Assembly (NCBI GenBank): GCA_965231045.1
Contig: OZ246406.1
Span: 450,208 to 514,207 of the forward strand
Reading direction: 5' to 3'
Origin: an uncultured Candidatus Saccharibacteria bacterium
Lineage (GTDB): Bacteria; Patescibacteriota; Saccharimonadia; Saccharimonadales; JAGQNJ01
Length of the DNA stretch: 64,000 bases
How positions within the stretch are numbered: the first letter of the stretch is position 1; every line of letters begins with the position of its first letter. The notes below the pieces were generated by a model that did no database searches, was not told the origin of the DNA, and saw nothing but the letters and a program-made list of their open reading frames with translations. Positions 19,791-59,610 of this stretch are shown here, piece after piece. The translations under genes and the position numbers were made by a program.

Positions 19791-19796
19791 GATTTT

Positions 19797-19966: not shown

Positions 19967-19968
19967 TG

Positions 19969-35401: not shown

Positions 35402-35419
35402 GGTGACCTCAAGGGGAAT
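35401..35419 (-). repeat. 19-nt exact duplicate of the tRNA-Glu 3' end
   Basis: TGGTGACCTCAAGGGGAAT at 35401-35419 is identical to 35531-35549. Confidence 0.9.
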
Positions 35420-35530
35420 GTTGCTTCGCAACCGTTCGTTCCACTCACGAACGAACCGCCTGACGGGCTTCGAGCTCGCCTTTGGCGAGCAACCACGCAA
35501 AAGCCCGAGTACACAACTCGGGCATTCACG
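35420..35530 (+). repeat. 111-nt insert between tRNA-Glu and its 3'-end duplicate; partial member of the G+C-rich repeat family
   Basis: Collinear with copy A: GAACCG 35453/4735, GAC.GGCT(T)CG, GCAACCAC 35489-35496/4763-4770, CAAA(A)GC, and ACACAAC 35511-35517/4781-4787. Hairpins are GTTGC-TTC-GCAAC, CGTTCGT-TCCACTC-ACGAACG and GCTCGCC-TTT-GGCGAGC. Confidence 0.55.
35497..35523 (-). terminator. intrinsic terminator 8 nt after the tRNA-Glu 3' end (inside the insert)
   Basis: Minus strand reads GCCCGAG-TTGTGTA-CTCGGGC followed by TTTTG. Confidence 0.6.
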
Positions 35531-35605
35531 TGGTGACCTCAAGGGGAATCGAACCCCTATTGCCAGGATGAAAACCTGGTGTCCTAACCGTTAGACGATG
35601 AGGCC
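35531..35605 (-). tRNA. tRNA-Glu (anticodon UUC), CCA encoded
   Basis: GGCCTCATCGTCTAACGGTTAGGACACCAGGTTTTCATCCTGGCAATAGGGGTTCGATTCCCCTTGAGGTCACCA folds as a cloverleaf. Anticodon stem CCAGG/CCTGG, loop UUUUCAU. Confidence 0.9.
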
Positions 35606-44511: not shown

Positions 44512-44575
44512 TTAATTCTCACTTAATTTAACTAATTTTATGAGTATATGCCTCTATTGTCAATTATATTGTATT

Positions 44576-45514: not shown

Positions 45515-45632
45515 CTGGGCAACCTCTTATTGCCCCTTGTTATATATTAATTTCGCTAAAAATACAACGATAAGCATCACTTTTATTTGAACGATCTACT
45601 ATTTATCTGTTACATTTAATTAAACTAAGCTT

Positions 45633-46016
45633 ATGCAGTCTAAACAAAAAATAGTAATCGTAGAGGATGAGCCGTCGATACAAGAAATGTATCGGATGAA
45701 GTTAAACTTATCCGGGTTTGACGTACAAACCGCAAATAATGGCGAAGATGGGCTAAAAGTAATCGATGCTTTTGAACCTCACCTGATTTTGCTCGATCTT
45801 AAGATGCCAGTTATGAGTGGTGACATCATGCTTGAAAAACTGCGTGAGACCAAAAAAGGCGCAGAGATTCGTGTAATAGTTCTCACAAACATTAGTCGTG
45901 ATGAAGCGCCACACAATCTGCGATTCCTAAATGTTGATCGGTATATTGTAAAAGCACATTACACACCGACACAGGTGATAAATGTCGTTGAAGAAGTTCT
46001 TGGTATAAAGAAGTAA
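45633..46016 (+). CDS. stand-alone response-regulator receiver protein (CheY-like), copy 1
   Basis: 127 aa. EDE acidic pair, phospho-Asp context ILLDLKMP, VLTN, and VKA Lys. Confidence 0.85.
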   Translation: MQSKQKIVIVEDEPSIQEMYRMKLNLSGFDVQTANNGEDGLKVIDAFEPHLILLDLKMPVMSGDIMLEKLRETKKGAEIRVIVLTNISRDEAPHNLRFLNVDRYIVKAHYTPTQVINVVEEVLGIKK

Positions 46017-46052
46017 GCTTGCAGTTGTAAGTAATAAGCGTACCATGAGGAT

Positions 46053-46421
46053 ATGGGTGCTAGGATCGCAATACTTGAAGATGATCAGCCCATACGCGAG
46101 ATGTATGAGCTCAAACTGAAGAGTGCCGGATACACTGTTAAAGCAGCCGGTGACGGCGTTCAAGGCCTAACGCTTTTGGAAAAATTCAGGCCTGACTTAA
46201 TACTTCTCGACCTTATGATGCCAGAAATGAACGGTGATGAAGTCGCCGAAAAGGTTCGCTCAACTAAGTGGGGAGCAAAAACAAAAATTATTGTTCTGAC
46301 TAATATTAGTTTGGATGAAGCGCCTGAAAAGTTACAAAAACTTGGAATACTAGATTATGTTGTCAAAGCCAATCACACACCTTCCCAGGTTATCGAAATA
46401 GTTCAAAACGCATTACATTAA
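46053..46421 (+). CDS. stand-alone response-regulator receiver protein, copy 2
   Basis: 122 aa. EDD, ILLDLMMPEMNG, VLTN, VKA. Confidence 0.85.
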   Translation: MGARIAILEDDQPIREMYELKLKSAGYTVKAAGDGVQGLTLLEKFRPDLILLDLMMPEMNGDEVAEKVRSTKWGAKTKIIVLTNISLDEAPEKLQKLGILDYVVKANHTPSQVIEIVQNALH

Positions 46422-46432
46422 AAAATGTAAGA

Positions 46433-47416
46433 TTACCTAATTCTTCTTTTAACCCCATAGTAGCGCCTACTCTTCACATAAGATTCTTCCGGTCGGACAG
46501 TATACTTTTTAAATGCATTTTTTGGCCTTAAAGAAAGTAGGTGAGCTCGATATTTTGGGTCACCTATATGTATAACCATATTTACGAATTTCGCGTTTTC
46601 TTTAGTAAATAATTCTGCCATCTTGTAGCATGCAAAGCTATGTGATCCAGGCACATCGAATGTAAATCCAGAGTACTTTATTACCTTATAGTTGCTATTT
46701 AGAGGTGATTCATATAATGAAAAGCTATTGATTTCATCATCTATATAAAGCGAAACAACTTCTGTGCCAAGTTTGGTTGCATTGTTAATTGAATACAGGA
46801 ATGCATTCTCTGCGTGACTTGGAAGACAATTAACTTCAGCTTTTTCTTTCCAGTCAAAATAACAGTTAATTATTAACTCTCGGTTTTCTGGCTTACTGAG
46901 ATCTATCTTTTTTAGGTCAACCCTTTTCCCTTTTGTGGCTCGTAAAAAGCTTCCGACTTTGATTCGTAGAAATATTGGCATTGACTTAATTTCTGCCGTT
47001 TCTTCGACCAACAATAAGGATTCTACGTAGTCAGGCTCATCCTCACAGCCAAACATCTCGGGGTACCTAATGTGTCCTAGTACAAAATCTGGTACGTGAA
47101 CTAGCTTACTTTCCTGGTCTTGAGCTTTTTGGTAATCAAAAATTTCGCAAATTGATTCGTCAATTTTATTAGTGCCCACCAGTGAAAGTCCTGAGTTTTC
47201 GTCATCTCCGGGCAGCCAATATGATATGACCAAGTTCCCGTGAATTTGTGAAACCTTACAATTACCAAGTGAGCTCCACCAACTCATTAAACTCGAAAAA
47301 GAGATTTCCGAGATTGGTGGATAATCTCGAATTAAGGCATTGTAAGCATCTCTATCAGACAACTTTAATTCATAAAACTCTGGAAATTCTGGGAGAACGA
47401 GTGGCTTTATCTTCAT
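46433..47416 (-). CDS. soluble DUF2156-like protein, paralog 2
   Basis: 327 aa. DYPPISEISFSSLMSWWSSLG...LSLVGTNKIDESI, collinear with paralog 1. Confidence 0.55.
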   Translation of the reverse strand: MKIKPLVLPEFPEFYELKLSDRDAYNALIRDYPPISEISFSSLMSWWSSLGNCKVSQIHGNLVISYWLPGDDENSGLSLVGTNKIDESICEIFDYQKAQDQESKLVHVPDFVLGHIRYPEMFGCEDEPDYVESLLLVEETAEIKSMPIFLRIKVGSFLRATKGKRVDLKKIDLSKPENRELIINCYFDWKEKAEVNCLPSHAENAFLYSINNATKLGTEVVSLYIDDEINSFSLYESPLNSNYKVIKYSGFTFDVPGSHSFACYKMAELFTKENAKFVNMVIHIGDPKYRAHLLSLRPKNAFKKYTVRPEESYVKSRRYYGVKRRIR

Positions 47417-47521
47417 ACAACACCTTTCGTTAGCCTTAAAATAGCACTAATAACTACAGGGGTCAACAGATATCAGTAAAATGTTATTGAGTTAGTATCA
47501 ACAATGCCGTAGGATTAATAT

Positions 47522-47893
47522 ATGTCGGCCAAGATCGCAATCATAGAAGACGATCAAGCTATTTCTCAGATGTACCGCATCAAATTTGAGGCGGAAGGTT
47601 TTGTTGTCGAGACTGCCGAAAACGGCAAACTTGGATTAGAACTTGCCGAAAATATGAAGCCAGATATTATTCTGCTGGACCTTATGATGCCAGAAATGAA
47701 CGGCGATGAAATGCTGTCCAAACTCCGCAAAACCCCGTTTGGCAAAAATACAAAAGTAGTCATCCTTACCAACATGGGCGAGCAAGAAGTCCCAGAAGAA
47801 GTTAAGAAACTTGGTGTTGTGGCAATTATTCTTAAGGCTGATATGACACCGCGCCAGGTAGCTGAACTTGTTAAGAAACAACTCAACAAATAG
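47522..47893 (+). CDS. stand-alone response-regulator receiver protein, copy 3
   Basis: 123 aa. EDD, ILLDLMMPEMNG, ILTN, LKA. Confidence 0.85.
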   Translation: MSAKIAIIEDDQAISQMYRIKFEAEGFVVETAENGKLGLELAENMKPDIILLDLMMPEMNGDEMLSKLRKTPFGKNTKVVILTNMGEQEVPEEVKKLGVVAIILKADMTPRQVAELVKKQLNK

Positions 47894-47911
47894 AACTGTT
47901 ACAATATTCAT

Positions 47912-49267
47912 ATGCGAATAGCGATTTTAGGATATGGGGATCAAGGACGTAGTGCCTTTGAGTACTGGAACAAGTCAGAAAATCAGATTACAATCTGCGA
48001 TCAAATTTTGCCAGATGATTTACCTGAAGGCGTTGATACCAAGTCTGATGGTGATTATTTAAGTAACTTGCATGAGTTTGACATGCTAGTTCGTACTCCA
48101 GGTCTTCACCCAACGGAAATCTTAAAAGCCAACGAATTGCACCCAGAAGTAATGGAAAAAGTAACAACCGTTACCAACGAGTTTTTTCGTGTTTGTCCGG
48201 CTCCAATCATTGGTATAACCGGAACAAAAGGCAAAGGAACAACCTCGAGTCTAATCGCTGCTTTTTTGCAGCAAGCGGGTAGACGCGTTCATCTAGGCGG
48301 CAATATTGGCATACCACCTCTTGACCTACTAAAGAATAACATCCAGCCGGATGATCTCGTTGTACTCGAACTAGCCAATTTTCAGCTTATTGATCTAAAG
48401 TATTCACCGCACATTGCCGTATGTCTTATGATTACGCCAGAACACCTCAACTGGCATCCTGATATGTTTGAGTACGTAAATGCCAAAAAGCAAATGTTTA
48501 TTCATCAACAAGTACATGATCTTGCAGTCTATAACAGTGCTAATCTTTACTCGCAAGAAATCGCTGATAGCTCGCCAGGCTATAAGTTAACTTATGAAGT
48601 CCCCTTGCCTGATCAGGACCCAACAGATGAAGATGGATTTTACGTCAAGGATGACCATATATTTGTAGCTGGTGAAAAAATTTGCAGCACTCATGATATC
48701 CTCCTACCCGGACGTCATAATTTAGAGAATATTTGTGCGGCACTTGCTGCAGTCTGGGAACTTATTCGCGAAGACAAACACATTGTCAAAGAGGTATTAA
48801 AGACATTTGCTGGCTTGCCACACCGTTTGCAGACAGTACTTAACTATGGCGGCGTACAAATCATTGATGATTCATTTGGCACAACTCCTGAAACCGCAAT
48901 CGTGGCTATCGATGCCTTTAAACAACCAAAAATTATGATTGTTGGTGGTTCGGATAAGGGATCATCATATGAAGAGATGGCTCAAAAAATTGTAAAAAGT
49001 AATGTTAAGTACCTGGTAGCCATTGGTGAAACTGGTCCAAAGATTGTCGATCTAGTTAAAAAATACTCGAATTACCGCAACGTCCCTTTCATTGTGCTTG
49101 ATGAAACTGTGAAAATGCCCGAGATCTTAGCTGTTGCACTTCAGCAGGCAAAAAAGGGTGACATGGTAATGTTATCAACCGGTAGCGCCAGCTTTGGAAT
49201 GTTTGCAAACTACAAAGATCGTGGCGAGCAATTTCAAGCCGCAGTTAAAGCCTTACCGACTGCCTAA
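47912..49267 (+). CDS. murD: UDP-N-acetylmuramoylalanine--D-glutamate ligase
   Basis: GITGTKGKGTT P-loop and Mur-ligase middle/C-terminal domains (GLPHRLQ). Confidence 0.85.
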   Translation: MRIAILGYGDQGRSAFEYWNKSENQITICDQILPDDLPEGVDTKSDGDYLSNLHEFDMLVRTPGLHPTEILKANELHPEVMEKVTTVTNEFFRVCPAPIIGITGTKGKGTTSSLIAAFLQQAGRRVHLGGNIGIPPLDLLKNNIQPDDLVVLELANFQLIDLKYSPHIAVCLMITPEHLNWHPDMFEYVNAKKQMFIHQQVHDLAVYNSANLYSQEIADSSPGYKLTYEVPLPDQDPTDEDGFYVKDDHIFVAGEKICSTHDILLPGRHNLENICAALAAVWELIREDKHIVKEVLKTFAGLPHRLQTVLNYGGVQIIDDSFGTTPETAIVAIDAFKQPKIMIVGGSDKGSSYEEMAQKIVKSNVKYLVAIGETGPKIVDLVKKYSNYRNVPFIVLDETVKMPEILAVALQQAKKGDMVMLSTGSASFGMFANYKDRGEQFQAAVKALPTA

Positions 49268-49915
49268 AATCCGTTTCAATTGTTCAATAACCGGCTTTTC
49301 TGGCTGTAAAATTTCAGCTCGGCCAGCTGCTTCATCGTGAATCAAATCCTCGATCCAGTGATAATGTGTACAGCCAAGAACGATAACGTCAGCCCCTTGA
49401 TTGCAGGCTTCATCAGTAATTTTACGGATGTGATCCTTGTCGATATTATTGGTCTCAATCATATGTGACCAGTCGCTGCAGTCAGGTTCTAGGACTTTTA
49501 CTCCCTTAGCAAATTCATCCTTAAGCTGAGCGTAACGCTTACTAGCTAAGGTTGTTGGAGTAGCACAGACCGCAATGACCTTTGATTTTGTAGCCGCTGC
49601 TGCCGGCTTAACCATTGGCTCCATGGCAATAAGAGGAACTTTAATTTCATCTCTCAAGTCTGAAATAATCGTTGTACTTACTGTATTACAGGCAATAACA
49701 ATTACATCTACACCCAGTTCAACTAATGATTCAAGAATTGGTACAACATATTCAAGCAATTCCTGAGGCTGCTTATTGGCGTAAGGGAAGTGGTCCGGAT
49801 CATTGGTAAACAAAACTTCATCATCTGGCAAAGCCTCTTGGATTGCTTGAGCTACTGATAGTCCGCCGATCCCAGAATCAAAAACACCAATTTTACTCAC
49901 TTTTTTTCTCCGCAA
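49253..49915 (-). CDS. murI: glutamate racemase
   Basis: GVFDSGIGGLSV, IACNT and GCTHY motifs. Confidence 0.88.
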   Translation of the reverse strand: MRRKKVSKIGVFDSGIGGLSVAQAIQEALPDDEVLFTNDPDHFPYANKQPQELLEYVVPILESLVELGVDVIVIACNTVSTTIISDLRDEIKVPLIAMEPMVKPAAAATKSKVIAVCATPTTLASKRYAQLKDEFAKGVKVLEPDCSDWSHMIETNNIDKDHIRKITDEACNQGADVIVLGCTHYHWIEDLIHDEAAGRAEILQPEKPVIEQLKRILGSR

Positions 49916-50714
49916 ACTTTTGTGCTGAGCGAATCACGTTTTCGAATAAGCCACAGACCGTTAGTGGGCCTACCCCACCCTTCTCGGGCGTAATAGTAAC
50001 GTCTGGTAGCTCGCGAACATCTTTGGCAATATCACCAACTAAGCCGTTCTTATCGGTTGCCACACCGGCATCAACCACAATCACATCAGGTTTTACCATT
50101 GAGGCATCGATTAGACCCGGCACACCAGTGGCGGCCACTAGGACATCAGCTTTTCTGGTTACATCAGATAGATTTGGAACTTTTTTGTCGGCAACCTCAA
50201 CATCAAAGCCAGAAGCCTTCCAAACTTTAGCCAGTGGGCGTCCTACCAGACGACCATGCCCGACAATCACAATATGTTTGTGTGCTAGGTCAACATTATA
50301 GCCAGCCAGCAACCAATCAATTGCTAGGGGTGTTGCTGGTTCAAATTCTGTTTTTTGGCCCAACCCATCTACATCTTTGTTAGGTGCTACTGCATTTAGA
50401 ATTTCATCAGTTTGCGTTGGATCAGGCAATGGTATCTGGACAATTATCCCATGCACACTGTTATCATCGTTTAGATCACTTATGCGTTTTAAGGCTTCTC
50501 TCTGATCAATAGTGTGCACATCGACATCAATTAAAATATCAGACCCATAATTTTGCTTGAGCTTCATATAGCTATCGACAACAGGATCTGGATTGGTTCG
50601 AATAATCGCAAGTTTAGGCTGTATATTATGGGCCTGCCGCAGTGTACGCACTTGTTTTGCTTGTCGTTCTTTGATAAAACCAGCAAGCTCTGAACCGTTT
50701 AATAACTTCTTCAT
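49893..50714 (-). CDS. folD: bifunctional methylenetetrahydrofolate dehydrogenase/cyclohydrolase
   Basis: 273 aa. YMKLKQ..., HGIIVQIPLP, VIVGHGRLVGRPLA, and GGVGPLT motifs. Confidence 0.88.
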   Translation of the reverse strand: MKKLLNGSELAGFIKERQAKQVRTLRQAHNIQPKLAIIRTNPDPVVDSYMKLKQNYGSDILIDVDVHTIDQREALKRISDLNDDNSVHGIIVQIPLPDPTQTDEILNAVAPNKDVDGLGQKTEFEPATPLAIDWLLAGYNVDLAHKHIVIVGHGRLVGRPLAKVWKASGFDVEVADKKVPNLSDVTRKADVLVAATGVPGLIDASMVKPDVIVVDAGVATDKNGLVGDIAKDVRELPDVTITPEKGGVGPLTVCGLFENVIRSAQKFAEKKSE

Positions 50715-50734
50715 TTCAAGCGCTTATTGTACCA

Positions 50735-50766
50735 CGAAAAACGAAAGAGCACCCCTGGGGGTGCTC
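50735..50766 (-). terminator. intrinsic terminator
   Basis: GAGCACCC-CTGG-GGGTGCTC, followed on the minus strand by TTTCGTTTTT. Confidence 0.7.
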
Positions 50767-50786
50767 AATCTTAATAGACGAACAAA

Positions 50787-51317
50787 TTATTTTGTTGCGG
50801 CTGGAGCTGATGGTGCAGCTGGAGCAGCTGGCTTTGAGCCACCTGAACCTGCGGCTGCAGGGCCACCATATTTTGCATCACCAAAGGCTAGCATTGGGAA
50901 GCCAACGATTGGCAATAGAATTAGCAATACTGCAAATCCAGTGGTCTTAGCAAATGATTTTGCAAGATCAACGTAAAGAATACAGATTACTACAAATCCG
51001 GCAAGACTACCGATGTATGGAATAACACCAAGTAATGGTGCTAGTCCCCACCAACCTGGGCGGCCAACAATTTCTGCCAATGTCCATGTGTTATAGAAAG
51101 GAATAATTGATTTCCATCCTGCTTCACCAGCTTTTGTGAAAATCTTCCACATACTGATGATCATAATTACTGAAACTACAAGGACAATTAACCAAATGAT
51201 TAGCAAAAACGCACCCAATCCTGCGGTTGATGCACCATTAGTTGTTGTCGTTGTGTACGTATAGTCGTAACTAGCTTGACCTAAGTTACCTGCAAGGCTT
51301 ACAAGAGCACCTAGCAT
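50787..51317 (-). CDS. DUF5684-like membrane protein
   Basis: KIFTKAGEAGWKSIIPFYNTWTLAEIVGRPGWWGL signature with multiple TM segments. Confidence 0.6.
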   Translation of the reverse strand: MLGALVSLAGNLGQASYDYTYTTTTTNGASTAGLGAFLLIIWLIVLVVSVIMIISMWKIFTKAGEAGWKSIIPFYNTWTLAEIVGRPGWWGLAPLLGVIPYIGSLAGFVVICILYVDLAKSFAKTTGFAVLLILLPIVGFPMLAFGDAKYGGPAAAGSGGSKPAAPAAPSAPAATK

Positions 51318-51445
51318 ACTTACCCTCCTTATTATTTATGAAGATAATTATAGCTTATTCGCGGTAAAACGAATAGTTTTTGTGAAAATATATGCATTAG
51401 GGGTATTACGTGCTACGATTTATCTAAATTTAACAGGAGTTTCTC

Positions 51446-52441
51446 ATGGAACCTTCGCCAAACGAACCAGAATCACTAGCACCAAAACCAGAGCACTCTG
51501 GGCATCATGCAGGGCATCATCACGAGCATCATCACGAGCAAGCTGCCCACGTGTCACACCCTACTCAAAGTACTTCACCGGCTGAATCACAGGAATATCA
51601 ATCAAATCCATTCCTCGTTTCAGTTACGGGGCTTGTTAGGATGCTTACGGTTAATCCTATACCATCCCTACTCCTAATCTTACTTCTTTCCGTTATGGCC
51701 GTTGGGGCGTTTATGTTTAGTTTCTTCTTTTTGCTAATTCCAATTTTGGGTGTCTTTGCATTTCTTGGTGTACTATTGCTAATTATGCCAGTTTTTTATG
51801 GTTCGCTTGCTTCACTAGGCGTGAGCAGTATTCGCCATGAGACACGCAGTACAACAGATTACATTGGTGACTCTTTCAAGAAGATTTGGACATTGCTTGG
51901 AGCATCAGTATTAATTGGCCTAGCAGTATTTGGCGGTCTACTTCTGTTTATAGTACCCGGAATCATATTTGGTCTGTGGTTTTGCTTTACATATTTCGTA
52001 ATCATGGACGAAAATCTTGGAGCCGTTGCTGCCATGAAAAGAAGTAAAGAATTAGCCAAGGGTCATTTAATTGAGATTCTTGGAGCATTATTTGCTGGCG
52101 GCATTATGGGCGGCGCCAGTTTTGGAAGTGGTGGCGGTCTATTGACTCCAATAATTTCAATGAGCCCACTAGTTGGAAGATATGAACAAATCAAAGCCCT
52201 CAAGTCAGGAAATCAGCCAAAACCAGAAGTCCATTGGGCAAACTATATATTAGTCGTTTTCTGCTCGATATTTGTTGCGATGTTTATTATTGTTTACGGC
52301 ATCATGATTGCTGCAGGGGTATATGACAGCAACAGTAACTACAACCGAAACAGATATAATCGGCCAACCTACCAACAAAACAACAACTTTGATAACTTTT
52401 TTAACGACAACGACTCAGGCCCTAGATTCCAGACCAATTAG
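51446..52441 (+). CDS. polytopic membrane protein with His-rich N-terminus and Asn-rich C-terminus
   Basis: EHSGHHAGHHHEHHHEQAAH, then about 6 TM segments, then a low-complexity N/Y/Q tail. Confidence 0.6.
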   Translation: MEPSPNEPESLAPKPEHSGHHAGHHHEHHHEQAAHVSHPTQSTSPAESQEYQSNPFLVSVTGLVRMLTVNPIPSLLLILLLSVMAVGAFMFSFFFLLIPILGVFAFLGVLLLIMPVFYGSLASLGVSSIRHETRSTTDYIGDSFKKIWTLLGASVLIGLAVFGGLLLFIVPGIIFGLWFCFTYFVIMDENLGAVAAMKRSKELAKGHLIEILGALFAGGIMGGASFGSGGGLLTPIISMSPLVGRYEQIKALKSGNQPKPEVHWANYILVVFCSIFVAMFIIVYGIMIAAGVYDSNSNYNRNRYNRPTYQQNNNFDNFFNDNDSGPRFQTN

Positions 52442-52606
52442 ATAACAGATTTACAAGTATTTTTTAATCTGTTAAAATTGCCTTCTGTTAGCTTGCTAAC
52501 AAAGCATTATCCCTAATTTTTCGAACCAAGGAGTGGCTTTGCCTCTCGACTGTTTGAAAAATTAAGAGGAAGAGGGAGTGCTATAAGGTGAAGCTCTGCG
52601 AGTTTA

Positions 52607-52642
52607 CTCGTCAGAGCAAGCCCAAAGCCTCACTCTGACGAG
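52607..52642 (+). other. perfect 10-bp hairpin abutting the tRNA-Lys 5' end
   Basis: CTCGTCAGAG (52607-52616) / CTCTGACGAG (52633-52642). The last G is tRNA nt 1. The upstream GCGAGTTTACT 52598-52608 matches rc of copy A 4794-4803. Confidence 0.5.
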
Positions 52643-52718
52643 GGCCACTAGCTCAGCTGGTTAGAGCATCGGCCTCTTAAGCCGAGTGTCCTGGGTTCGA
52701 GTCCCAGGTGGCCCTCCA
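52642..52718 (+). tRNA. tRNA-Lys (anticodon CUU), CCA encoded
   Basis: GGGCCACTAGCTCAGCTGGTTAGAGCATCGGCCTCTTAAGCCGAGTGTCCTGGGTTCGAGTCCCAGGTGGCCCTCCA. Anticodon loop CUCUUAA. Confidence 0.9.
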
Positions 52719-52731
52719 ATACATTGTCAAT

Positions 52732-52758
52732 AATGCCATAACATGGCATTATTTTATT
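52732..52758 (+). terminator. intrinsic terminator 14 nt after tRNA-Lys
   Basis: AATGCCAT-AAC-ATGGCATT followed by ATTTTATT. Confidence 0.6.
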
Positions 52759-52869
52759 ATTGTGACTACCTTTAGTGCAGAGAATGGAAATAATTGGCAC
52801 ATTGAACGAGCAGAAATAGACCCATATTTTGCAGCTGAGACATGTAGAGAGATTGGCCAATTAGCATCT

Positions 52870-53328
52870 ATGGAGCTAGAACTTCCTGATGGGGTAATCT
52901 CCTCAAGGTTACTAGTAGATGGTCGAAGGCTATCTGGATTTCAGTGCTGTGTTGAGCCAGCGCTTGATACAGACCGTGACGGTCTTTTAAATTATCCGGA
53001 GTTTGCCGCGAGAGTACCAAATTTACTTAAGCTCTTTCATCTACGGCGTAAGACTGTCGGGAGTACAGTGCCGGGTTTTGGGATTAACATACTTGGTTCA
53101 CACGGATTTATCCAGACACACAGAGACGCCTATCTGTCCCCATCAAGTGCTACGGTCTTAGAAGGTGAGTCCACAACTACTATTACCGATCCGATAACTG
53201 GCATAGAACGTATATTTACACTAGCTGTTGGCGACTCCTTTACTCTGCAAAATACCGCAGGTAGTCCACCCCCTTTACACGGAGCGCGTAACTTAAAATC
53301 TAAACGACGAATTACATTTGTTATTTAA
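52870..53328 (+). CDS. 2OG-Fe(II) oxygenase-like protein (start uncertain: ATG 52870 or GTG 52762)
   Basis: HxD (QTHRDA) ... GD ... H (PLHGA) ... RRITF pattern. The track's ATG at 52708 overlaps the tRNA and is rejected. Confidence 0.5.
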   Translation: MELELPDGVISSRLLVDGRRLSGFQCCVEPALDTDRDGLLNYPEFAARVPNLLKLFHLRRKTVGSTVPGFGINILGSHGFIQTHRDAYLSPSSATVLEGESTTTITDPITGIERIFTLAVGDSFTLQNTAGSPPPLHGARNLKSKRRITFVI

Positions 53329-53459
53329 CGAGAAGCCTTTAGGTCCGCGAGGTAGACCCCTCCATCACGATATTCCATTCCAAGGTCAATGAGACGATGA
53401 TATAAGATTGTCAAATCCTCGATAATATTGAATTCGGGGTGTTCCAAAAAAATACCTCC

Positions 53460-53470
53460 TGGCCCTCCAA
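53460..53470 (+). repeat. 11-nt exact duplicate of the tRNA-Lys 3' end (TGGCCCTCCAA)
   Basis: 53460-53470 is identical to 52709-52719 (acceptor 3' strand + discriminator + CCA + A), with partial similarity further 5'. Confidence 0.6.
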
Positions 53471-53515
53471 AATGGTTAAAAGAGGCGGGGAGCGTCTTTT
53501 TGTTATGATAGAGGT

Positions 53516-54271
53516 ATGAAAGAACTTACAGTTGCGTCGTGGAACATTGGTGGTGGGTATAAGATTGCCAGTACCAAGCAGTTTGACTATCAAGAAAAAG
53601 AAGATGTCGCGTATATTATCAGCGAGATAAAGAAGGTCAAGCCAGACATCGTATGTCTGCAAGAGTCCCATGTAAACGATGAGGATTCATTGTCCCGTCG
53701 TATTCAAGCAGGGATCGGATTTGATCATATATTTGAGGTAGCGAGTCATGAATCTCATATTGATACACGCTATAAGAATGCCACAGTGATTTTATCGAAG
53801 TCTAACATTACTAGGCAAAATAAGGTGCCGATCCCTTACCCCGAGTTTGAATTGAGATTTGCTGATGGTAGGTATTCAGCGTTTCATCAAAGGTACTTGC
53901 AAACTTCAGAAATTGAGAATTGCATGATCGCCAATACTCATGGTAACAATATCAACATGTTTGGCTATGATTATGAGCAAGGCAAAGGGAAAGATCTAGC
54001 AGGAAAGATAGAGGAAGTCTACATAGACAATCTTGAGCGACCTCTAATTTTTGTGGGTGATTTTAACTGTGATAATGCACAGAAAGTATTTTCTAAACTG
54101 GTAAGTACATTGAAACTCTCAAATGCGATCCCGGCTGGCGCAACAAGACCGGACGGGAGACATACAGATTACATATTTTGTAGCCCGGAGCTTAGAATAG
54201 TTGAGTCGCAAGTAGTAAAGACCCAGACTGACCACTATCTATGCTGGACAAAGTTTCGTTTACCAAAATAG
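53516..54271 (+). CDS. endonuclease/exonuclease/phosphatase (EEP) family protein
   Basis: SWNIGGG..., PDIVCLQE, and C-terminal TDHYL motifs. Confidence 0.75.
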   Translation: MKELTVASWNIGGGYKIASTKQFDYQEKEDVAYIISEIKKVKPDIVCLQESHVNDEDSLSRRIQAGIGFDHIFEVASHESHIDTRYKNATVILSKSNITRQNKVPIPYPEFELRFADGRYSAFHQRYLQTSEIENCMIANTHGNNINMFGYDYEQGKGKDLAGKIEEVYIDNLERPLIFVGDFNCDNAQKVFSKLVSTLKLSNAIPAGATRPDGRHTDYIFCSPELRIVESQVVKTQTDHYLCWTKFRLPK

Positions 54272-54307
54272 ACCAACGGCCCCTACGGTGATCCCAACTA
54301 AGAACTC

Positions 54308-56545
54308 TCATTTGAGAGTTTTTTGTTTTTGTAGATCTACGGCCATAGCTTTTTCTAGATTTAGGGCAATGAGTGCCAAGTCACCAACATCGCCGTCATA
54401 AGCAAAGTAATTTTCTTGCCAGTCTGGCTCAAACTTATTTTTAAACTGCTCTAGCCCGGCGGCTGAGAAACGGCCGGCACCAAGCGTTCGAGCAATTCGA
54501 GCTAATCGGCCTGTCATTTGTGCTAAAGGCACAAAACCGATGTCAAAGTATTTATATCTGTCTTCCTCGTTAAGTTGATGCAGTACGTTATAAATCAAAA
54601 AATTGTTAGCGTTAGGTGCATCTTCTATAAAACGAATTAAATCAATCGTCGTTTGACGTAAGTTATTGTATATTGGCAGTTCATTTACAAAAGCAACTAC
54701 TCTTTGCTGTTCATCACGCAAAAGATGAATTCGGCAGCGCTGCAAATAACTTACATCAAAATACCCAAGCGCAAAGCCTTCCTCCTGATGCCCATCACGT
54801 TTTAGCCACTCATCCGAAACAGCCTTAAGTTCATTTAATAACTCATGGGAGTGTGGCGCCTGTAACACCTCGTACTTATAACCAAGCTTTGTGCCTTTAT
54901 TATTTTGCCAACGCCACCATTTGTTACGGGCTGTTTCATTGCAGTACTTATCAATATCAACTACAGCACTAGCCCCAACTTTTAGAAAATTCAATGCATC
55001 ATTGCTGTATAGACTTCTGGTTTTATCGGAAATTACCATAAAACACACTCTCCAACCATGCGTGCGACAATACGACATAAAGTCATCGAGTATATTTTGT
55101 TGATCTTTTGGAGTATCGGCAACTGGATCAGCTAACGCAAACGCAACTGGTCCAACTACTTTATAAGCAATAAAAGCCCGCCTATTACCAAGCCAAAAGT
55201 ACTGTTTATCATGAGGCCAAATCTTAAAGAAATCTTCAGTTGATCTAGAATACTGATGAAGCAAAGCCTCGGCTTCTTCAATCTCATTAAGCGAGGCTAC
55301 GCCATGTTCATGCTGGGCTGGCTGAAATAGCGCCCAAAGCAAAAAGGCTGTGCTAGAAATAACCAAGAGTGTAACTATACGCGCCCTTATGGTTTCTTTT
55401 ACGTGACTTTGAGTAAAATGACTGGTGCTACTTATGATTCTGCCTGAACGATGTAAGGTGGAGTTAACAAGCGGATGTGCTGGTGTATGTAGCAGCAACT
55501 CACCAATAATGACAATAGCAATCATCACTCCACCTAGCATGATAGTTATATCTACTATTCGAGATCTCCATGATTGTGCAACAACCCCCCTGTTAAAGTA
55601 GTCGCGAGCTGTAAAAACAAACGCGAACGTAATAATATAAAGTGCCAGTAATGCTGGCTGAGGAATAATAATGGCGTATTTCAAAACTTCAAAGCCGATA
55701 AGCATAACTAAGATTTGCCAGGCCCGCCGCTCACCTCGAGCGATATGACGACTTATATAAAGAAAGACAAGCCCCACGATTAAACCATGTTGACTGAGCC
55801 ATGTATTATCTTCGGCGAAATAAAAACTCTGCAGGAATCCAAAGTAGCCAATATGAACAACGGCCAATAATATTGTTGCTATGCCATTTATGCCGACCCA
55901 AACCGCCAGAACCTTATTTACGTTGCTTGTTGCTCTTGGTGGATGTGGCTCATTATCAAACTGGGTTACTGCAAACCAAGCCAACCAAACTATGGTGACG
56001 GATTGATACAAGAACTGAGAAAAAGTCCCAAAGTGGTATATAGATGCATACTGGGTCAAGAACAGACCGCCGTACAGAATCTGGAATGTCAAAAAGAATC
56101 CTGATGGTACGCGCTTCTTCCTAAAGGTATCCCAAGCAGCAAGTGCCAACATGGCACCTACCGCAACAGTGTTGTCAATGGCGTGCCCAATTACAGCCTC
56201 AGCATTTTCTTCTCTACAAAATCCACTGGTTATATGACAGCCAGTTGGTATAAACGCGTCAACGGCAATCGCAATACCTATAACGGCTAGAAGCCCGCTA
56301 GAAATACTAAGCCCCCTTTGTTTTTTCATCATGTAGCCCGCCATACCCAAAAGCAGTAAACCGGCAATAACATCACAAGCCCTGAACAACCAAGAATATG
56401 CCATACCTGGCACTTCAAAGTGATTAATAAGTGCGTCTGGACTGGTTAAAATTGGGTTTATTATTGGGGCAAATAGCCAGCTAGTAGCCGTTAAAAGGAA
56501 GGCTAGTTGCCACAAATTTTTCCAGTGGCGTTTTAGAAACGACAT
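54308..56545 (-). CDS. MprF-like aminoacyl-phosphatidylglycerol synthase (polytopic N-terminus + DUF2156 C-terminus)
   Basis: 745 aa. About 12 TM segments, then FFKIWPHDKQYFW...AFIAYKVVGPVAFALADPV, typical of LPG_synthase_C. Confidence 0.75.
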   Translation of the reverse strand: MSFLKRHWKNLWQLAFLLTATSWLFAPIINPILTSPDALINHFEVPGMAYSWLFRACDVIAGLLLLGMAGYMMKKQRGLSISSGLLAVIGIAIAVDAFIPTGCHITSGFCREENAEAVIGHAIDNTVAVGAMLALAAWDTFRKKRVPSGFFLTFQILYGGLFLTQYASIYHFGTFSQFLYQSVTIVWLAWFAVTQFDNEPHPPRATSNVNKVLAVWVGINGIATILLAVVHIGYFGFLQSFYFAEDNTWLSQHGLIVGLVFLYISRHIARGERRAWQILVMLIGFEVLKYAIIIPQPALLALYIITFAFVFTARDYFNRGVVAQSWRSRIVDITIMLGGVMIAIVIIGELLLHTPAHPLVNSTLHRSGRIISSTSHFTQSHVKETIRARIVTLLVISSTAFLLWALFQPAQHEHGVASLNEIEEAEALLHQYSRSTEDFFKIWPHDKQYFWLGNRRAFIAYKVVGPVAFALADPVADTPKDQQNILDDFMSYCRTHGWRVCFMVISDKTRSLYSNDALNFLKVGASAVVDIDKYCNETARNKWWRWQNNKGTKLGYKYEVLQAPHSHELLNELKAVSDEWLKRDGHQEEGFALGYFDVSYLQRCRIHLLRDEQQRVVAFVNELPIYNNLRQTTIDLIRFIEDAPNANNFLIYNVLHQLNEEDRYKYFDIGFVPLAQMTGRLARIARTLGAGRFSAAGLEQFKNKFEPDWQENYFAYDGDVGDLALIALNLEKAMAVDLQKQKTLK

Positions 56546-56584
56546 AGCCTATATTGTACCTACTTACTGTGTTATCCAAAAACT

Positions 56585-57073
56585 TTAAACCAAAGCTTTG
56601 GCACGTTTCCACACTTGAAATCTATAAGTTACGCCATTCTCCGTTATAGGATCACCTGAAGTTACAAGTTGAAATTGATTCTTGAACTCGGGGAAAAACT
56701 TTGTACAACCAAAATCCCCATCAATCTGTGTGATATAAAGCTCCTCAGCATAATCAATAGTACTTGCAAATAATCCTGCTCCACCTAAATTCCAAATATC
56801 ATTATGGCTTGATTTTATAAACTCAACGGCGTCAGAAACTGGCTCGAAGCCTTCACGCAATTTTTCATCTTTTGAGGTTGCTACGTAGTTTGTTCCACCT
56901 GGATATGGTTTTGTAAGTTCCACATAAAGTCCGTAGCCCATAAGGATCGTACCGCCATCATTTACTTTGTCACGATAGTACTTAATATCTCCAGGGATTT
57001 TTCCCTGCCACGGTATGCCGTGATCATCAGCAATACCTCGTTTTTCATCCATTGCTGCAATACATCTAACCAT
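56585..57073 (-). CDS. folA: dihydrofolate reductase
   Basis: 162 aa. IAAMDEKRGIADDHGIPW...LMGYGLY...GGAGLF collinear with the DHFR pattern. Confidence 0.7.
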   Translation of the reverse strand: MVRCIAAMDEKRGIADDHGIPWQGKIPGDIKYYRDKVNDGGTILMGYGLYVELTKPYPGGTNYVATSKDEKLREGFEPVSDAVEFIKSSHNDIWNLGGAGLFASTIDYAEELYITQIDGDFGCTKFFPEFKNQFQLVTSGDPITENGVTYRFQVWKRAKALV

Positions 57074-58346
57074 GGATATATTGTCTCACTTTGTAGACTA
57101 GCGAACCAATTAAATAAAATGATCCTGTAATAAGTATGATATCCTCTGGCTGTTTTAGTAATTCTTCGAATGCATCATCGGTGTTTTTTATTGATTGAAC
57201 CCTAGAAAAGCCTGCTTTCTTGCATCCAGAAACCAATTCCGTACTTGGCATGACTTTATGCGGCAGGTCAGTACTAGCCATAAATTCAGTCGTAATTACA
57301 TTGTCCGAAATACTGTGCAAGATTGTGAGGCTAACATCAAGAGTTGCCTGCTTACTTTCCATGAATGCTATTAGTAGAGCATATGATTTATCTGGGAATA
57401 ATTTTTTCAGGCTGCTAACTAGAGCATTTAGTTTCTGAGGATTATGTGCGCCATCAATAACTAATGTTTTGTTGCCTATTTGTACGTGCTGTAATCGGGC
57501 TGGAATAATAGTTTTTTGTGAATCTAGAAGTATTTCGGTATCGAGTTTATTAAGCCCGTCCCGATTAATCACAAACTCGGCAACTTGTTGTGCGAGTAAC
57601 CAGTTCCTCTTTTGATAGTCGGGCAAGTCACTGTTTAGTCGAGCATTTCTGTGCAACTCAACTTCATCCAGTCGATGTAGTATGGCTTTTGATTCTTTAA
57701 CTTGCTTATCAATTACATCGTTTAAGATTTTATTTTGGTCATAACAAAAAACATTATTACCTGATTTTATTATTCCGGCTTTTTGAAAAGCAATTTTTTC
57801 TAGTGTGTCGCCAAGAATTCGGGTATGATCGAGGCCAATATCGGTAATAACTGCAACTTTGTCGCGATCATCTATTATATTAGTTGCGTCTTTGAGGCCT
57901 CCCAAACCAACCTCCATGACTACATGAGTGCAGTTCATTCTGGCAAATACAAATAGTGCAAACGTAATCACGCATTCAAAATACGTTGGTTTGAGCTCGA
58001 TCAAACCAGGCGTATTAATAAACTCTGTGAACAGCTCGCACATTTCAGACTCTTTTAATGGAACGTTATTAATTTGAATGCGCTCATTAATTTGAAAAAC
58101 ATGTGGCGAAACACTCAGCCCAACCTTTGCGCCGCTAGACTTGAGCAATTCTGCAATGTAGTAACAGGTTGAGGTCTTGCCAGAAGTTCCTGCAACATGA
58201 ATGATCTTAAATTTGTTTTGTGGATTATCAACTAGTGGCAAAAGTTCATACATTTTTTGTGGATTATAAAAATCGCCATCAAGAATAGAACCAGGTACAA
58301 ACTGTCGTAAATACTTATTTAGCTCTTCAAAACTACTAACTTTCAT
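57066..58346 (-). CDS. folC: folylpolyglutamate synthase/dihydrofolate synthase (Mur-ligase family)
   Basis: HVAGTSGKTST P-loop and EVGLGG. Overlaps folA by 8 nt. Confidence 0.75.
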   Translation of the reverse strand: MKVSSFEELNKYLRQFVPGSILDGDFYNPQKMYELLPLVDNPQNKFKIIHVAGTSGKTSTCYYIAELLKSSGAKVGLSVSPHVFQINERIQINNVPLKESEMCELFTEFINTPGLIELKPTYFECVITFALFVFARMNCTHVVMEVGLGGLKDATNIIDDRDKVAVITDIGLDHTRILGDTLEKIAFQKAGIIKSGNNVFCYDQNKILNDVIDKQVKESKAILHRLDEVELHRNARLNSDLPDYQKRNWLLAQQVAEFVINRDGLNKLDTEILLDSQKTIIPARLQHVQIGNKTLVIDGAHNPQKLNALVSSLKKLFPDKSYALLIAFMESKQATLDVSLTILHSISDNVITTEFMASTDLPHKVMPSTELVSGCKKAGFSRVQSIKNTDDAFEELLKQPEDIILITGSFYLIGSLVYKVRQYIHG

Positions 58347-58377
58347 CCGACCTATATTGTACTTTAGAATGTAATAA

Positions 58378-58785
58378 CTAACGTGCTATTAGTAACAAAA
58401 CCGCTGCTATCGCAATAATACTTAGTGCAACTATAATTGTCTTGGGATCGGCAATGAAAAGGTTGGTTTTGGTTTTAACACCGTTGTTTTCTAGTAAACT
58501 TCTAACTTCTTTTAAGGATTTTGGATCTGATAAACTTTTTCTGGCATAAACTAAACTATAATTTGCGGGTTTTATGCCCCTTATAACATAACTGCCCCCG
58601 CTGGTCTTTAACCGAACATAATTTGCCGAAAATTCGGCAAGACTAATTGATGATAGGGGCGTATTAAGCAGTACAGCCTCACCTTCCCTTACAACGATAA
58701 CTTGTGGAGTAACCAAGAGTTCTTTACTTAGGTTTGTAGAACCATAGTTACAAATCAAATTCAGTTCTTTTTCATTAGCCTGCAT
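58378..58785 (-). CDS. hypothetical protein with C-terminal TM anchor
   Basis: ORF with C-terminal IIVALSIIAIAAVLLLIA. Confidence 0.45.
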   Translation of the reverse strand: MQANEKELNLICNYGSTNLSKELLVTPQVIVVREGEAVLLNTPLSSISLAEFSANYVRLKTSGGSYVIRGIKPANYSLVYARKSLSDPKSLKEVRSLLENNGVKTKTNLFIADPKTIIVALSIIAIAAVLLLIAR

Positions 58786-58828
58786 ATTATATCCTTATTG
58801 TATTCATCTTAATATAATACCAATACTA

Positions 58829-59344
58829 TTACTTAGCTAGTTCGTTTAGATATTTTTGCGCTCTTTTTGAAACAGACTTATGAGGATCGCTCATCAGCCT
58901 CTTTAGTTGTTTTGAATAATCTGTAGCTAGGCTGGTGTTTTCTTTAACAAACTTGTACATTATTTCAATGCTAAAATTGAGTACTATCCAATCAGTGGCA
59001 TGTTCTAGGTTAGACCTAAGAATTTCAATGGCTCTTTTAGTTTGTATTTCATTTAGATCAAGTTCTCCCATCATTTGCACCAAATGCCACTGTACTGATG
59101 GCTGGTCAATTTTATAAACTTCAGTTTGTAATCTATCAATATAATCACTGAACCAATCCGGATGTACTCGACAAATTTTTTCCAGTGCATCACCGGCACG
59201 CATCCTGACAAGCTCATCACTAACAAATAAACAGTCAAATAGTGTTTTTAGTTCGCCAGGGTTTTCAAAGACAAAATGGATAACTTCTTCTGTGTGACCA
59301 AGACTATTTGGATGCCCACCAGTAAGCAAAAGTTCGATGTTCAT
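58829..59344 (-). CDS. HEAT-repeat protein (DNA alkylation repair AlkD-like, tentative)
   Basis: 171 aa, all-helical repeat character. Weak resemblance to PF08713 proteins. Confidence 0.4.
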   Translation of the reverse strand: MNIELLLTGGHPNSLGHTEEVIHFVFENPGELKTLFDCLFVSDELVRMRAGDALEKICRVHPDWFSDYIDRLQTEVYKIDQPSVQWHLVQMMGELDLNEIQTKRAIEILRSNLEHATDWIVLNFSIEIMYKFVKENTSLATDYSKQLKRLMSDPHKSVSKRAQKYLNELAK

Positions 59345-59386
59345 AAATCTATGGTAACAGACAGCCTGTGGTTAATCGTATTGCAC

Positions 59387-59403
59387 GGTACACCGGGAGG
59401 GAT
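59387..59403 (-). repeat. 17-nt exact duplicate of the tRNA-Arg 3' end
   Basis: GGTACACCGGGAGGGAT at 59387-59403 is identical to 59535-59551. Confidence 0.88.
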
Positions 59404-59494
59404 AATCGCACATTAATCTGTGCGCCGAGAATCTCGGGCAACAGACTAATGACCGAACCCTGGATCGAATCCCTGCTCGAAATGTCGAGCTAAA

Positions 59495-59519
59495 ATATAA
59501 AACCACCCATTCTGGGTGG
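59495..59519 (-). terminator. intrinsic terminator 14 nt after the tRNA-Arg 3' end (inside the insert)
   Basis: Minus strand reads CCACCCA-GAA-TGGGTGG followed by TTTTATATTTT. Confidence 0.6.
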
Positions 59520-59533
59520 CAAAATATTTTACC

Positions 59534-59610
59534 TGGTACACCGGGAGGGATTCGAACCCCCGACCCTCTGTTCCGAAGACAGATGCTCTAATCCGCTGAG
59601 CTACCGGTGC
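59534..59610 (-). tRNA. tRNA-Arg (anticodon UCG), CCA encoded
   Basis: GCACCGGTAGCTCAGCGGATTAGAGCATCTGTCTTCGGAACAGAGGGTCGGGGGTTCGAATCCCTCCCGGTGTACCA. Anticodon loop CUUCGGA. Confidence 0.9.

Follow-up and report, generated by a model that had tools for sequence, protein, structure and literature searches.

The tRNA-Lys(CTT) gene on contig OZ246406.1 of an uncultured Candidatus Saccharibacteria bacterium (assembly GCA_965231045.1) is followed on the same strand by partial copies of its own 3′ end, which raises the question of whether the DNA lying between and behind these copies was inserted there, and by what kind of process. The window analyzed here is the whole 64,000-nt stretch from 450,208 to 514,207 of that contig, and positions given without other indication refer to it. 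A preliminary description of the window had flagged a 740-bp islet between the tRNA gene and an 11-nt copy of its end, carrying a single 2-oxoglutarate (2OG) oxygenase-like gene, here named ORF188 (ORF, open reading frame). Comparison with a conspecific contig and with tRNA-Lys loci of other Saccharibacteria suggests that the segment 52722-54299 is probably a strain-variable stack of cassettes at the 3′ end of tRNA-Lys(CTT), formed by site-specific, integron-like insertion through an enzyme encoded elsewhere, a reading that we hold with moderate confidence.

The preliminary description had proposed looking in related genomes for tRNA-Lys loci without the insert, and an empty site was indeed found in the conspecific contig L131 (96-98% identical). 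This 10.3-kb Logan contig was retrieved by a homologue search with the membrane protein upstream, of which it holds a 99%-identical copy. Positions 1-5051 of L131 aligned to 47680-52721 of the window at 96.0% identity and positions 5053-10337 to 54300-59581 at 98.4%, while its tRNA-Lys, identical to that of the window, ran straight into TAAAATAACTCTCACCGTCTGAGAGTTTTTTG, the native trailer and terminator. As L131 joins the tRNA to position 54300, the strain-variable block is 52722-54299, a segment of 1,578 bp holding ORF188 and an endonuclease/exonuclease/phosphatase (EEP) gene and absent from L131, and both of its breakpoints coincide with short tRNA-derived repeats, hereafter cores. The islet thus proved to be inserted, strain-variable DNA with copies of the tRNA end, but it had been drawn too small, since the block also contains the EEP gene; the flagged 740 bp correspond to a first cassette (52720-53364) plus a 95-nt gene-less spacer. 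The limits of that cassette were set by comparison with a second contig, L002, treated below. The features of the block and its borders are:

52642-52718, + strand: tRNA-Lys(CTT) with encoded CCA (ARAGORN; Rfam, 68 bits), identical in L131; putative attB-like anchor of the array
52709-52719, + strand: core copy 1, TGGCCCTCCA plus A, covering the 3′ strand of the acceptor stem, the discriminator base and CCA; the L131 indel starts directly behind it
52720-53364, + strand: cassette 1, delimited by the L002 comparison, with a leader, the 567-bp ORF188 and a 36-nt tail to a degenerate core
52720-52761, + strand: leader of cassette 1, with a terminator-like hairpin at 52729-52753 (AATAATGCCATAACATGGCATTATT, 11 pairs), a T-run and a TG-extended -10-like box, CATTAT
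52762 (GTG)-53328, + strand: ORF188, 188 aa, cargo of cassette 1, with a 2OG/Fe(II)-dioxygenase-like fold (from the ratio of nonsynonymous to synonymous divergence, dN/dS, a family alignment, an AlphaFold2 (AF2) model and Foldseek)
53325-53447, - strand: antisense ORF of 40 aa, headed by AGGAGG-7 nt-TTG, spanning the degenerate core and the spacer; no Pfam match
53355-53364, + strand: degenerate core GACCCCTCCA, 36 nt past the stop codon of ORF188; closes the ORF188 cassette on the right, where homology between the window and L002 stops
53365-53459, + strand: gene-less spacer of 95 nt, possibly a decayed cassette, without the 20-nt junction motif described below
53460-53470, + strand: core copy 2, the flagged 11-mer, at the boundary between the spacer and the EEP cassette
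53471-54299, + strand: cassette 2 (EEP unit), with leader, EEP gene and decayed junction
53471-53515, + strand: leader of cassette 2, with a weak terminator AAAAGAGGCG..CGTCTTTTT, then TGTTATGAT (extended -10-like), and the ATG 6 nt on
53516-54271, + strand: EEP gene, 251 aa, cargo of cassette 2 (Pfam PF03372, E = 5e-18)
54280-54299, + strand: junction in decayed form, CCCCTACGGTGATCCCAACT (consensus GCGTCTACGG-TGGCCCTCCA-A), closing the entire block on the right; L131 boundary at 54299/54300
54300-54323, + strand: native trailer and terminator, common to the convergent MprF-like gene; directly 3′ of the tRNA in L131

The 11-mer repeat on which the islet had been based was borne out. TGGCCCTCCAA occurs exactly twice in the window with one mismatch allowed, at 52709-52719 and 53460-53470, both on the + strand, and the terminator said to follow tRNA-Lys directly is present as the hairpin in the leader of cassette 1. 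A third, degenerate copy, GACCCCTCCA at 53355-53364, had been overlooked. The heptamer CCCTCCA common to the copies is found four times in the window, roughly as expected by chance overall; three of these lie on the same strand within 760 bp, at 52712, 53358 and 53463, and by our own estimate the probability of at least two extra copies within 1 kb downstream of the tRNA is about 5e-4. The fourth heptamer, at 39392-39398, is away from any tRNA. Together with its left flank, core copy 2 matches the commonest Saccharibacteria tRNA-Lys allele over 15 nt (CCTCCTGGCCCTCCA), versus 11 nt of the resident tRNA. That this copy might be a displaced ancestral tRNA end followed by its native trailer was considered and rejected, as L131 places the native trailer at 54300 and 53471-53515 is the EEP leader.

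Contig L002 (970 bp) shared 91% nucleotide identity with the window, limited to 52698-53369, with different flanks on both sides. On the left, homology started within a tRNA-Lys 3′-end remnant of 22 nt (CGAGTCCCAGATGGCCC-CCAG), located about 85 nt 3′ of a different tRNA-Lys allele with its own terminator; in L002 the ORF188 unit is therefore preceded by a gene-less mini-insert of the kind described below. On the right, GATCACTCCAA replaced the degenerate core, and both the leader and the gene behind it differed from those of the window. The ORF188 block hence ends at tRNA-derived cores on both sides, in keeping with the islet as a unit, but its right end is 53355-53364, and the 11-mer thought to close it heads the EEP cassette. 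The leader of cassette 1, in which the CATTAT box ends 9 nt upstream of the ORF188 GTG, was identical in window and L002 at 42 of 42 positions despite a synonymous divergence (dS) of 0.22 in the adjacent ORF, and is therefore under constraint. A homologue of this leader lies 3′ of tRNA-Lys in L046, where it heads an unrelated ORF with a typical junction behind it, and a 54%-identical homologue of ORF188 (P0018, in L129) sits between two core-plus-leader junctions.

To place the locus in a broader context, a degenerate pattern covering the last 55 nt of tRNA-Lys(CTT) was run against GTDB species representatives and recovered at least 120 loci, almost all from Saccharibacteria; the counts that follow refer to the 120 genome loci listed. 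Within 4 kb downstream, 34 of the 121 tRNA-Lys genes had an exact copy of at least 11 nt of their 3′ end on the same strand, whereas upstream copies were seen for only two, both being a second copy of the tRNA gene. The downstream copies belong to two classes: gene-less mini-inserts of about 130-230 bp, whose repeat of 16-22 nt starts in the T-loop (class 1), and gene-bearing units, whose repeat comprises the last ~10-13 nt of the tRNA and is preceded by a conserved 20-nt motif (class 2). The 30-nt class-2 junction has the consensus AGTTGC[GA]ATA[GA]C.T..AC[GT][AG]-TGGCCCTCCA, with a per-position conservation of roughly 50-100%; its 20-nt part, AGTTGCRATAGC.T..ACGR, has no counterpart in the tRNA, and its last 10 nt are the tRNA 3′ end. 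The junction occurred 48 times in 32 of the 120 loci, never upstream of the tRNA and four times on the other strand. The exact motif was also found on 69 further metagenome contigs of the Joint Genome Institute (JGI), with a tRNA-Lys end upstream on the same strand in 17 of the 17 cases where that region was visible. In the window, the 20-nt motif did not occur even at a relaxed threshold of 12/20.

Units between junctions had a median length of 897 bp, and the main ORF was co-directional with the tRNA in 36 of 48. Their ORFs start 36-81 nt past a core and stop 28-80 nt before the next; in the leaders, a hairpin and a T-run are often joined by a TG-extended -10-like box located a few nucleotides ahead of the ATG. 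The two leader types that recur, AGCATAAGC... and ...TTATGCTTAAA, followed ~29% of junctions and ~13% of tRNA ends, compared with <0.4% of random positions. The 485 ORFs downstream of tRNA-Lys fell into 344 clusters, among which the sole recurrent families were flanking housekeeping genes; upstream, FolD was the neighbor of tRNA-Lys in 76 of the 120 loci. Some units recurred at other array positions or in other genomes, and their homology stopped at cores (L014 and L129; L014, L091 and L038; L112 and L125), and L056 and L071 differed by a 2.9-kb block bounded at a core. Position -10 of the junction and the inner core positions varied independently of the resident tRNA allele while CTCCA was nearly invariant, which places any crossover at the extreme 3′ end of the tRNA.

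Long arrays were seen in several genomes. Positions 75-4434 of L014 hold 5-7 junctions in ~4.4 kb, and other long arrays occur in L095, L094, L060 and L161 (three exact junctions); in L094, class-1 mini-insert repeats are interleaved with class-2 junctions in one array. L038 contains a 2.7-kb multi-gene unit between two 22-nt repeats. In L043 (reverse complement, 3840-4384) and L102 (reverse complement, 1210-1751), an insert of ~380 bp with one small ORF lies between two full-length copies of tRNA-Lys that include ~10 nt of 5′ flank, the downstream copy in L102 decaying to a pseudogene.

Cassette 2 and the spacer were compared with these arrays. Over 47 nt, the leader of cassette 2 shared 83% identity with a leader located behind a junction core in L061, where the adjoining genes are unrelated, and similar leaders were present in L123, L043, L094 and others. 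Identical copies of the EEP gene were confined to this species; the next homologues, 61% and 54% identical, are non-syntenic because the gene is itself cargo, and the EEP gene consequently failed as a synteny anchor. The 54% homologue (P0005) lies within an array in L008 that opens with a tRNA-Lys end, so that the EEP family itself is array cargo. Behind the gene, only CTACGG and TGATCCCAA remain of the junction, with the degenerate core at about 54290-54297. The spacer 53365-53459 had no homologue among the genome loci and is possibly a decayed cassette. The 40-aa antisense ORF across it is probably spurious, and its C-terminal part, read from the alignment, is poorly conserved as protein in L002.

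With leaders of 43 nt (ORF188) and 46 nt (EEP) and tails of 36 and 28 nt, the two cassettes of the window fit the array-wide ranges. In both leaders (52747-52764 and 53501-53518) a -10-like box lies 6-9 nt before the start codon, with no convincing Shine-Dalgarno sequence, and such boxes recur in cassette leaders of other loci too. This layout suggests leaderless mRNAs from both cassettes, leaderless or near-leaderless in the case of cassette 1.

Upstream of the array, before the tRNA, lie a UPF0259-like gene, a DUF5684 gene and FolD. The closest syntenic relatives have other content between tRNA-Lys and the conserved neighbors: in L049 the flank of tRNA-Lys consists of mini-inserts only, and in L132 of a mini-insert followed by AAA_18 and rhodanese genes. 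The base composition of the islet, for which a comparison with the flanks had been suggested earlier, was ordinary (G+C of 0.445 for ORF188 and 0.406 for EEP, against a window mean of 0.428), and codon usage was only mildly atypical, ORF188 ranking fourth lowest and EEP lowest in fit among 42 window genes.

Comparable stacks follow tRNA-Lys in dozens of related genomes, a recurrence that suggests a dedicated mechanism of gene capture, and the strict orientation of the units and the position of breakpoints at cores would count for a site-specific process. In the mechanism that we favor, cassettes would enter singly by site-specific recombination between the tRNA 3′ end (attB-like, with a crossover near ...CTCCA|A) and a site carried by the cassette, in which the 20-nt motif, core and leader would be combined. 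Conserved on unrelated cargo and without a counterpart in the tRNA, the motif is as expected of a putative protein-binding site. The recombinase gene would lie at another place in the genome or on a helper element, the newest cassette would land next to the tRNA and displace older units downstream, and the leader would both re-terminate the tRNA transcript and supply a promoter, making each cargo gene self-sufficient. A wider version of this idea, which we advance tentatively and rate as somewhat short of probable, is that the tRNA-Lys(CTT) 3′ end of Saccharibacteria serves as an integron-like gene-capture platform, on which self-expressing one-gene cassettes with a ~30-nt site, the final 10 nt of which mimic the tRNA end, would be inserted, excised and shuffled by a recombinase acting in trans, generating much of the strain-level accessory genome, and that a second, related system makes the mini-inserts of 130-230 bp at tRNA-Glu, tRNA-Arg, tmRNA and tRNA-Lys.

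Several observations weigh against site-specific insertion as the explanation for the block. No recombinase was present among the Pfam-annotated genes of the ~17 kb from 42762 to 59589, nor, by Pfam, among 10 other mid-size ORFs of the window, and a crude, unvalidated regular expression for the tyrosine-recombinase box II found none in the window or in ~1.2 Mb of array-bearing DNA (120 genome and 69 metagenome loci). No circular, excised or extrachromosomal form was found, viral contigs carried neither the junction motif nor the pattern of tRNA end plus leader, and BLAST searches against phage and plasmid collections gave no match. The 20-nt motif is missing at both cores downstream of ORF188, so this cassette may have been transferred in a different way or may carry a decayed site. 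Decay of the block's right-hand core (TGATCCCAA) goes far beyond the 2-4% divergence between the strains, and the block may therefore have arrived pre-assembled. The comparison with L131 fits either a gain in the window or a loss in L131, L131 and L002 are each a single short-read Logan contig, and leaders are otherwise heterogeneous, the recurrent types accounting for only ~29% of junctions.

The main rival is homology-driven exchange after natural transformation, in which the near-invariant tRNA gene (with FolD upstream) would serve as the left anchor and cores, junctions and leaders as microhomology on the right, by RecA or homology-facilitated illegitimate recombination and with no dedicated recombinase. 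We consider it unlikely, although several features of the arrays speak for it. No recombinase was found in or near any array by the searches named above, synteny of FolD and tRNA-Lys is kept in 76 of the 120 loci, the decayed right core suggests pre-assembled transfer, and the ORF188 cassette, devoid of the 20-nt motif, has ends that are core matches of 7-11 nt only; moreover, Saccharibacteria are naturally competent (bioRxiv 10.1101/2023.05.02.539146, published as PMC10633639). Exchange of this kind leaves unexplained, however, the conservation of the 20-nt motif, at 60-100% per position, across distant genomes and unrelated cargo as well as the strict polarity and co-orientation of the units, and the breakpoints coincide precisely with cores and are not scattered over the conserved leaders. 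In addition, homology of 10-30 nt is very short for RecA.

Decay of larger tRNA-integrating elements (prophages, integrative plasmids or tycheposon-like elements) would also place copies of the tRNA 3′ end downstream, with integrase and backbone later deleted and single cargo genes and att scars left behind, a scenario that we regard as quite improbable. Small, reduced genomes have a strong deletion bias, and the full-length tRNA duplications around the ~380-bp inserts of L043 and L102, with the decaying downstream copy in the latter, and the 2.7-kb multi-gene unit between 22-nt repeats in L038 fit such a history; a precedent exists in tycheposons, where elements have integrated one after another at a single tRNA and partial tRNAs are dispersed over the island (bioRxiv 10.1101/2020.12.28.424599). 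Random decay would not be expected, however, to yield units as regular as those observed, with leaders of 36-81 nt, tails of 28-80 nt, their own terminator and promoter-like element and a conserved 30-nt junction, or identical unit boundaries across genomes; no integrase fragments were seen in the ~1.2 Mb of array DNA with the same crude and unvalidated expression, and no match was obtained in viral, phage or plasmid collections. That nothing special had happened, the 11-mer being a chance match and ORF188 an ordinary resident gene beside the tRNA, is barely credible. The normal G+C content of the segment would fit this, as would the overlap of the reverse complement TTGGAGGGCCA with a Shine-Dalgarno-like GGAGG (the AGGAGG-7 nt-TTG that heads the antisense ORF), and in shuffles of the 64 kb with one mismatch allowed at least two matches arose in 23 of 100 trials. 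Against this stand the conspecific empty site with breakpoints at cores, three same-strand CCCTCCA heptamers within 760 bp versus four in the whole window, the homology of the leader behind the 11-mer with leaders behind cores elsewhere, the presence of only two close homologue clusters of ORF188 among 5.8 billion proteins, and the ratio of 34 to 2 between downstream and upstream tRNA-end copies. Because of the L131 empty site, this 34-to-2 bias and the shuffling of cassettes, coincidence is refuted in practice.

The proposed site-specific cassette insertion shares features with several known systems. Tyrosine-integrase islands, as Williams is said to have described in 2002, use the 3′-end and T-loop sublocations of tRNA and tmRNA genes, and the arrays resemble them in insertion at a tRNA 3′ end that leaves the tRNA intact, in the distal direct repeat, in strain variability and in tandem accretion with newer units nearest the tRNA, as proposed here. 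They differ in lacking a cis-encoded integrase (the insert holds ORF188 and EEP only), in their units of ~0.3-1.5 kb with usually one gene, in a core of ~10 nt, and in the conserved 20-nt motif and compact terminator-plus-promoter leader found on unrelated cargo. In integrons, intI and attI lie beside the first cassette, attC sites are imperfect palindromes (R''-L''...L'-R') with a GTTRRRY crossover box, and expression is driven by Pc. Like integrons, the arrays are polar and co-oriented, are made of mostly one-gene cassettes with a short site-like separator in shuffled orders, and carry extremely diverse cargo of largely unknown function; unlike in integrons, no intI or attI accompanies the array, the anchor is a tRNA 3′ end, the cassettes have their own promoter-like leader, and the junction AGTTGCRATAGC.T..ACGR-TGGCCCTCCA shows, by inspection only, no R''/L''/L'/R' architecture.

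Modules without a recombinase that are mobilized in trans include the pdif modules of Acinetobacter plasmids, integrative mobile elements exploiting Xer (IMEX, using host XerCD) and cis-mobilizable elements (CIMEs). With their small cargo modules between recombination-like sites and no recombinase of their own, they are the nearest conceptual precedent for the putative cassettes described here. Unlike those of pdif modules, the junctions are not 11-6-11 dif-like, their left arm is a tRNA end, and the arrays are chromosomal and anchored at a tRNA. One of the leader types, TTATGCTTAAA, bears a loose resemblance to the XerD arm of dif; a dif/Xer-type site is nevertheless speculation, as there is no 11-6-11 architecture. 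Tycheposon islands of Prochlorococcus, in streamlined genomes, have older elements pushed inward and partial tRNAs between units with niche-specific cargo (bioRxiv 10.1101/2020.12.28.424599). The arrays share with them a streamlined genome, an island beside a tRNA gene and, as proposed here, repeated integration at one tRNA. Tycheposons are multi-kilobase elements with recombinase and replication modules, whereas the repeat unit of the arrays is a single, apparently self-expressing gene, and no tycheposon recombinase, replication or packaging genes were present in the insert of the window or in the most recurrent ORF clusters downstream of tRNA-Lys.

The cargo of cassette 1 was characterized further. 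Gene callers chose the same start for ORF188, 52762, and its homologue in L002 (88% identical protein) has an ATG at that codon. The public NCBI-sourced annotation gives a 206-aa form (P0037; 52708-53328) with a GTG start inside the tRNA-Lys gene, which, given the L002 ATG, is probably mis-called and is an annotation affected by the present analysis. With a dN/dS of 0.26 relative to L002, ORF188 is a real gene under purifying selection. A word-indexed search of 5.8 billion proteins matched only ORF188 itself and the L002 homologue, no relative was found in JGI metagenomes, and a full HMMER search of 1.84 billion representatives returned 12 matches at E <= 1e-3, three of which, long multi-stretch proteins judged spurious, were left out of the alignment. 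The HxD...H...R signature of 2OG-Fe(II) oxygenases noted in the preliminary description held up: H120, D122, H173 and R183, together with an R-I-S/T motif, are invariant in 10 family members down to 22% identity, and the predicted fold supports it.

The AF2 model built from the family alignment had a predicted local distance difference test (pLDDT) score of 81.9 and a predicted template modeling (pTM) score of 0.82. A Foldseek search of the PDB with this model gave 669 matches at E <= 1e-3; all 50 matches listed are 2OG/Fe(II) oxygenases, including prolyl-4-hydroxylase (P4H; 4j25), AlkB (2fd8), ALKBH2/5 and PHD2, with top matches at E ~ 1e-7 and TM scores of 0.5-0.63 and a sequence identity to solved structures of 9-17%. 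The best match in a PDB profile search was a plant 2OG oxygenase at E = 0.74, which paired H173 and R183 with equivalent residues. In Pfam, ORF188 itself had no 2OG match at E <= 1 and reached no curated family threshold, and its remote homologues had sub-threshold matches only (PF03171, E = 0.006; PF13532, E = 0.009; PF05118, E = 0.01). The Pfam and homology check put forward earlier thus yielded no family, whereas AF2 and Foldseek returned a 2OG fold, and "2OG-oxygenase-like" is accepted for ORF188 at the level of modeled fold and motif. Like the 2OG/Fe(II) dioxygenases (AlkB/ALKBH, P4H, PHD), the model has a double-stranded beta-helix with an HxD...H facial triad and an Arg 10 residues past the distal His, in the R-I-S/T motif; unlike AlkB, P4H and PHD, ORF188 falls below every Pfam threshold and belongs to a tiny, orphan-like family. 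It is most likely an Fe(II)/2OG-dependent hydroxylase or demethylase.

The second oxygenase-like gene that had been pointed out, 20746-21288, showed no detectable homology to ORF188 (hhalign probability 3.6%). It had no Pfam match, a PDB sequence search returned nothing relevant, its single-sequence AF2 model was too poor to use (pLDDT of 39), and it lies on the 5′ side of the tmRNA, outside the 3′ insert of that gene. In its longer form this ORF (198 aa, 20692-21288, + strand) contains an HED...H motif, and with a 346-aa ORF (18675-19715, - strand), located just downstream of the tmRNA mini-insert, it flanks the tmRNA; neither belongs to a Pfam family.

The individual islet is modest, and the interest lies in the array system around it. 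Saccharibacteria and other members of the candidate phyla radiation are obligate epibionts with genomes below 1 Mb and few recognizable mobile elements, and their strain-specific gene acquisition is poorly understood; a full-text literature search found no description of tRNA-anchored cassette arrays in Saccharibacteria or Patescibacteria. If the proposed mechanism is correct, the arrays would represent a concrete route of gene flux in Saccharibacteria, recurring across the phylum with highly diverse cargo. For engineering those few Saccharibacteria that can be cultivated and are naturally competent, they would also provide a natural landing pad equipped with portable terminator/promoter leaders, and they would open a way to mine niche-adaptive genes, among them the orphan 2OG-oxygenase-like family and the EEP nuclease/phosphatase.

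The window holds three tRNA genes and one tmRNA gene, and the three such genes other than tRNA-Lys all carry a mini-insert composed of the gene, a terminator hairpin, ~100 nt of filler with a small terminal hairpin and a copy of the gene's 3′ end:

19793-19987, - strand: tmRNA mini-insert, 23-nt copy with one mismatch, spacing 172
35401-35549, - strand: tRNA-Glu mini-insert, 19-nt exact copy, spacing 130
59386-59551, - strand: tRNA-Arg mini-insert, 17-18-nt copy, spacing 148; also in the conspecific L131

A terminator directly after the gene, reported earlier for these three loci, was seen at each. The suggestion that the ORF188 islet is a cargo-bearing version of these inserts did not stand, as the mini-inserts have repeats of 17-23 nt from the T-loop (or its tmRNA equivalent) and unrelated filler; the ORF188 unit repeats only the last ~10 nt, as in the cassette arrays, and so belongs to a different class. 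By eye, no terminal inverted repeats were visible in the mini-inserts, for which a casposon-like target-site duplication and a retroelement primer-binding site were considered. In L049 (6449-6570) the tRNA-Lys mini-insert is apparently duplicated in tandem across a run of N, so that masking or a scaffold gap may explain the duplication and the copy number is uncertain.

The filler of the tRNA-Arg mini-insert (GGTTCGGTCATTAGTCTGTTGCCCGAGATTCTCGGCGCACAGATTAATGTGCGATT, 59399-59459, - strand) was 87% identical over 62 nt (E = 2.5e-8) to the filler at L049 6582-6643, which belongs to a tRNA-Lys mini-insert of another genus-level metagenome-assembled genome, and related fillers were present in L088 and L132. 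Because one filler family is combined with the 3′ ends of different tRNAs, the mini-element may be mobile and retargetable. Remnants and resident genes do not always agree in the T-stem: in L002 (1-165) the resident tRNA-Lys has GAGAG/CTCTC versus CCCAG in the remnant, and in L088 (7470-7690, - strand) the resident gene has CTGGG/CCCAG versus CCCTG, with a second, nested remnant, TTTAAGTCCCTC. These mismatches suggest that a mini-insert event exchanges the entire T-arm or the tRNA gene as a whole, for which a simple crossover in the T-loop would be insufficient.

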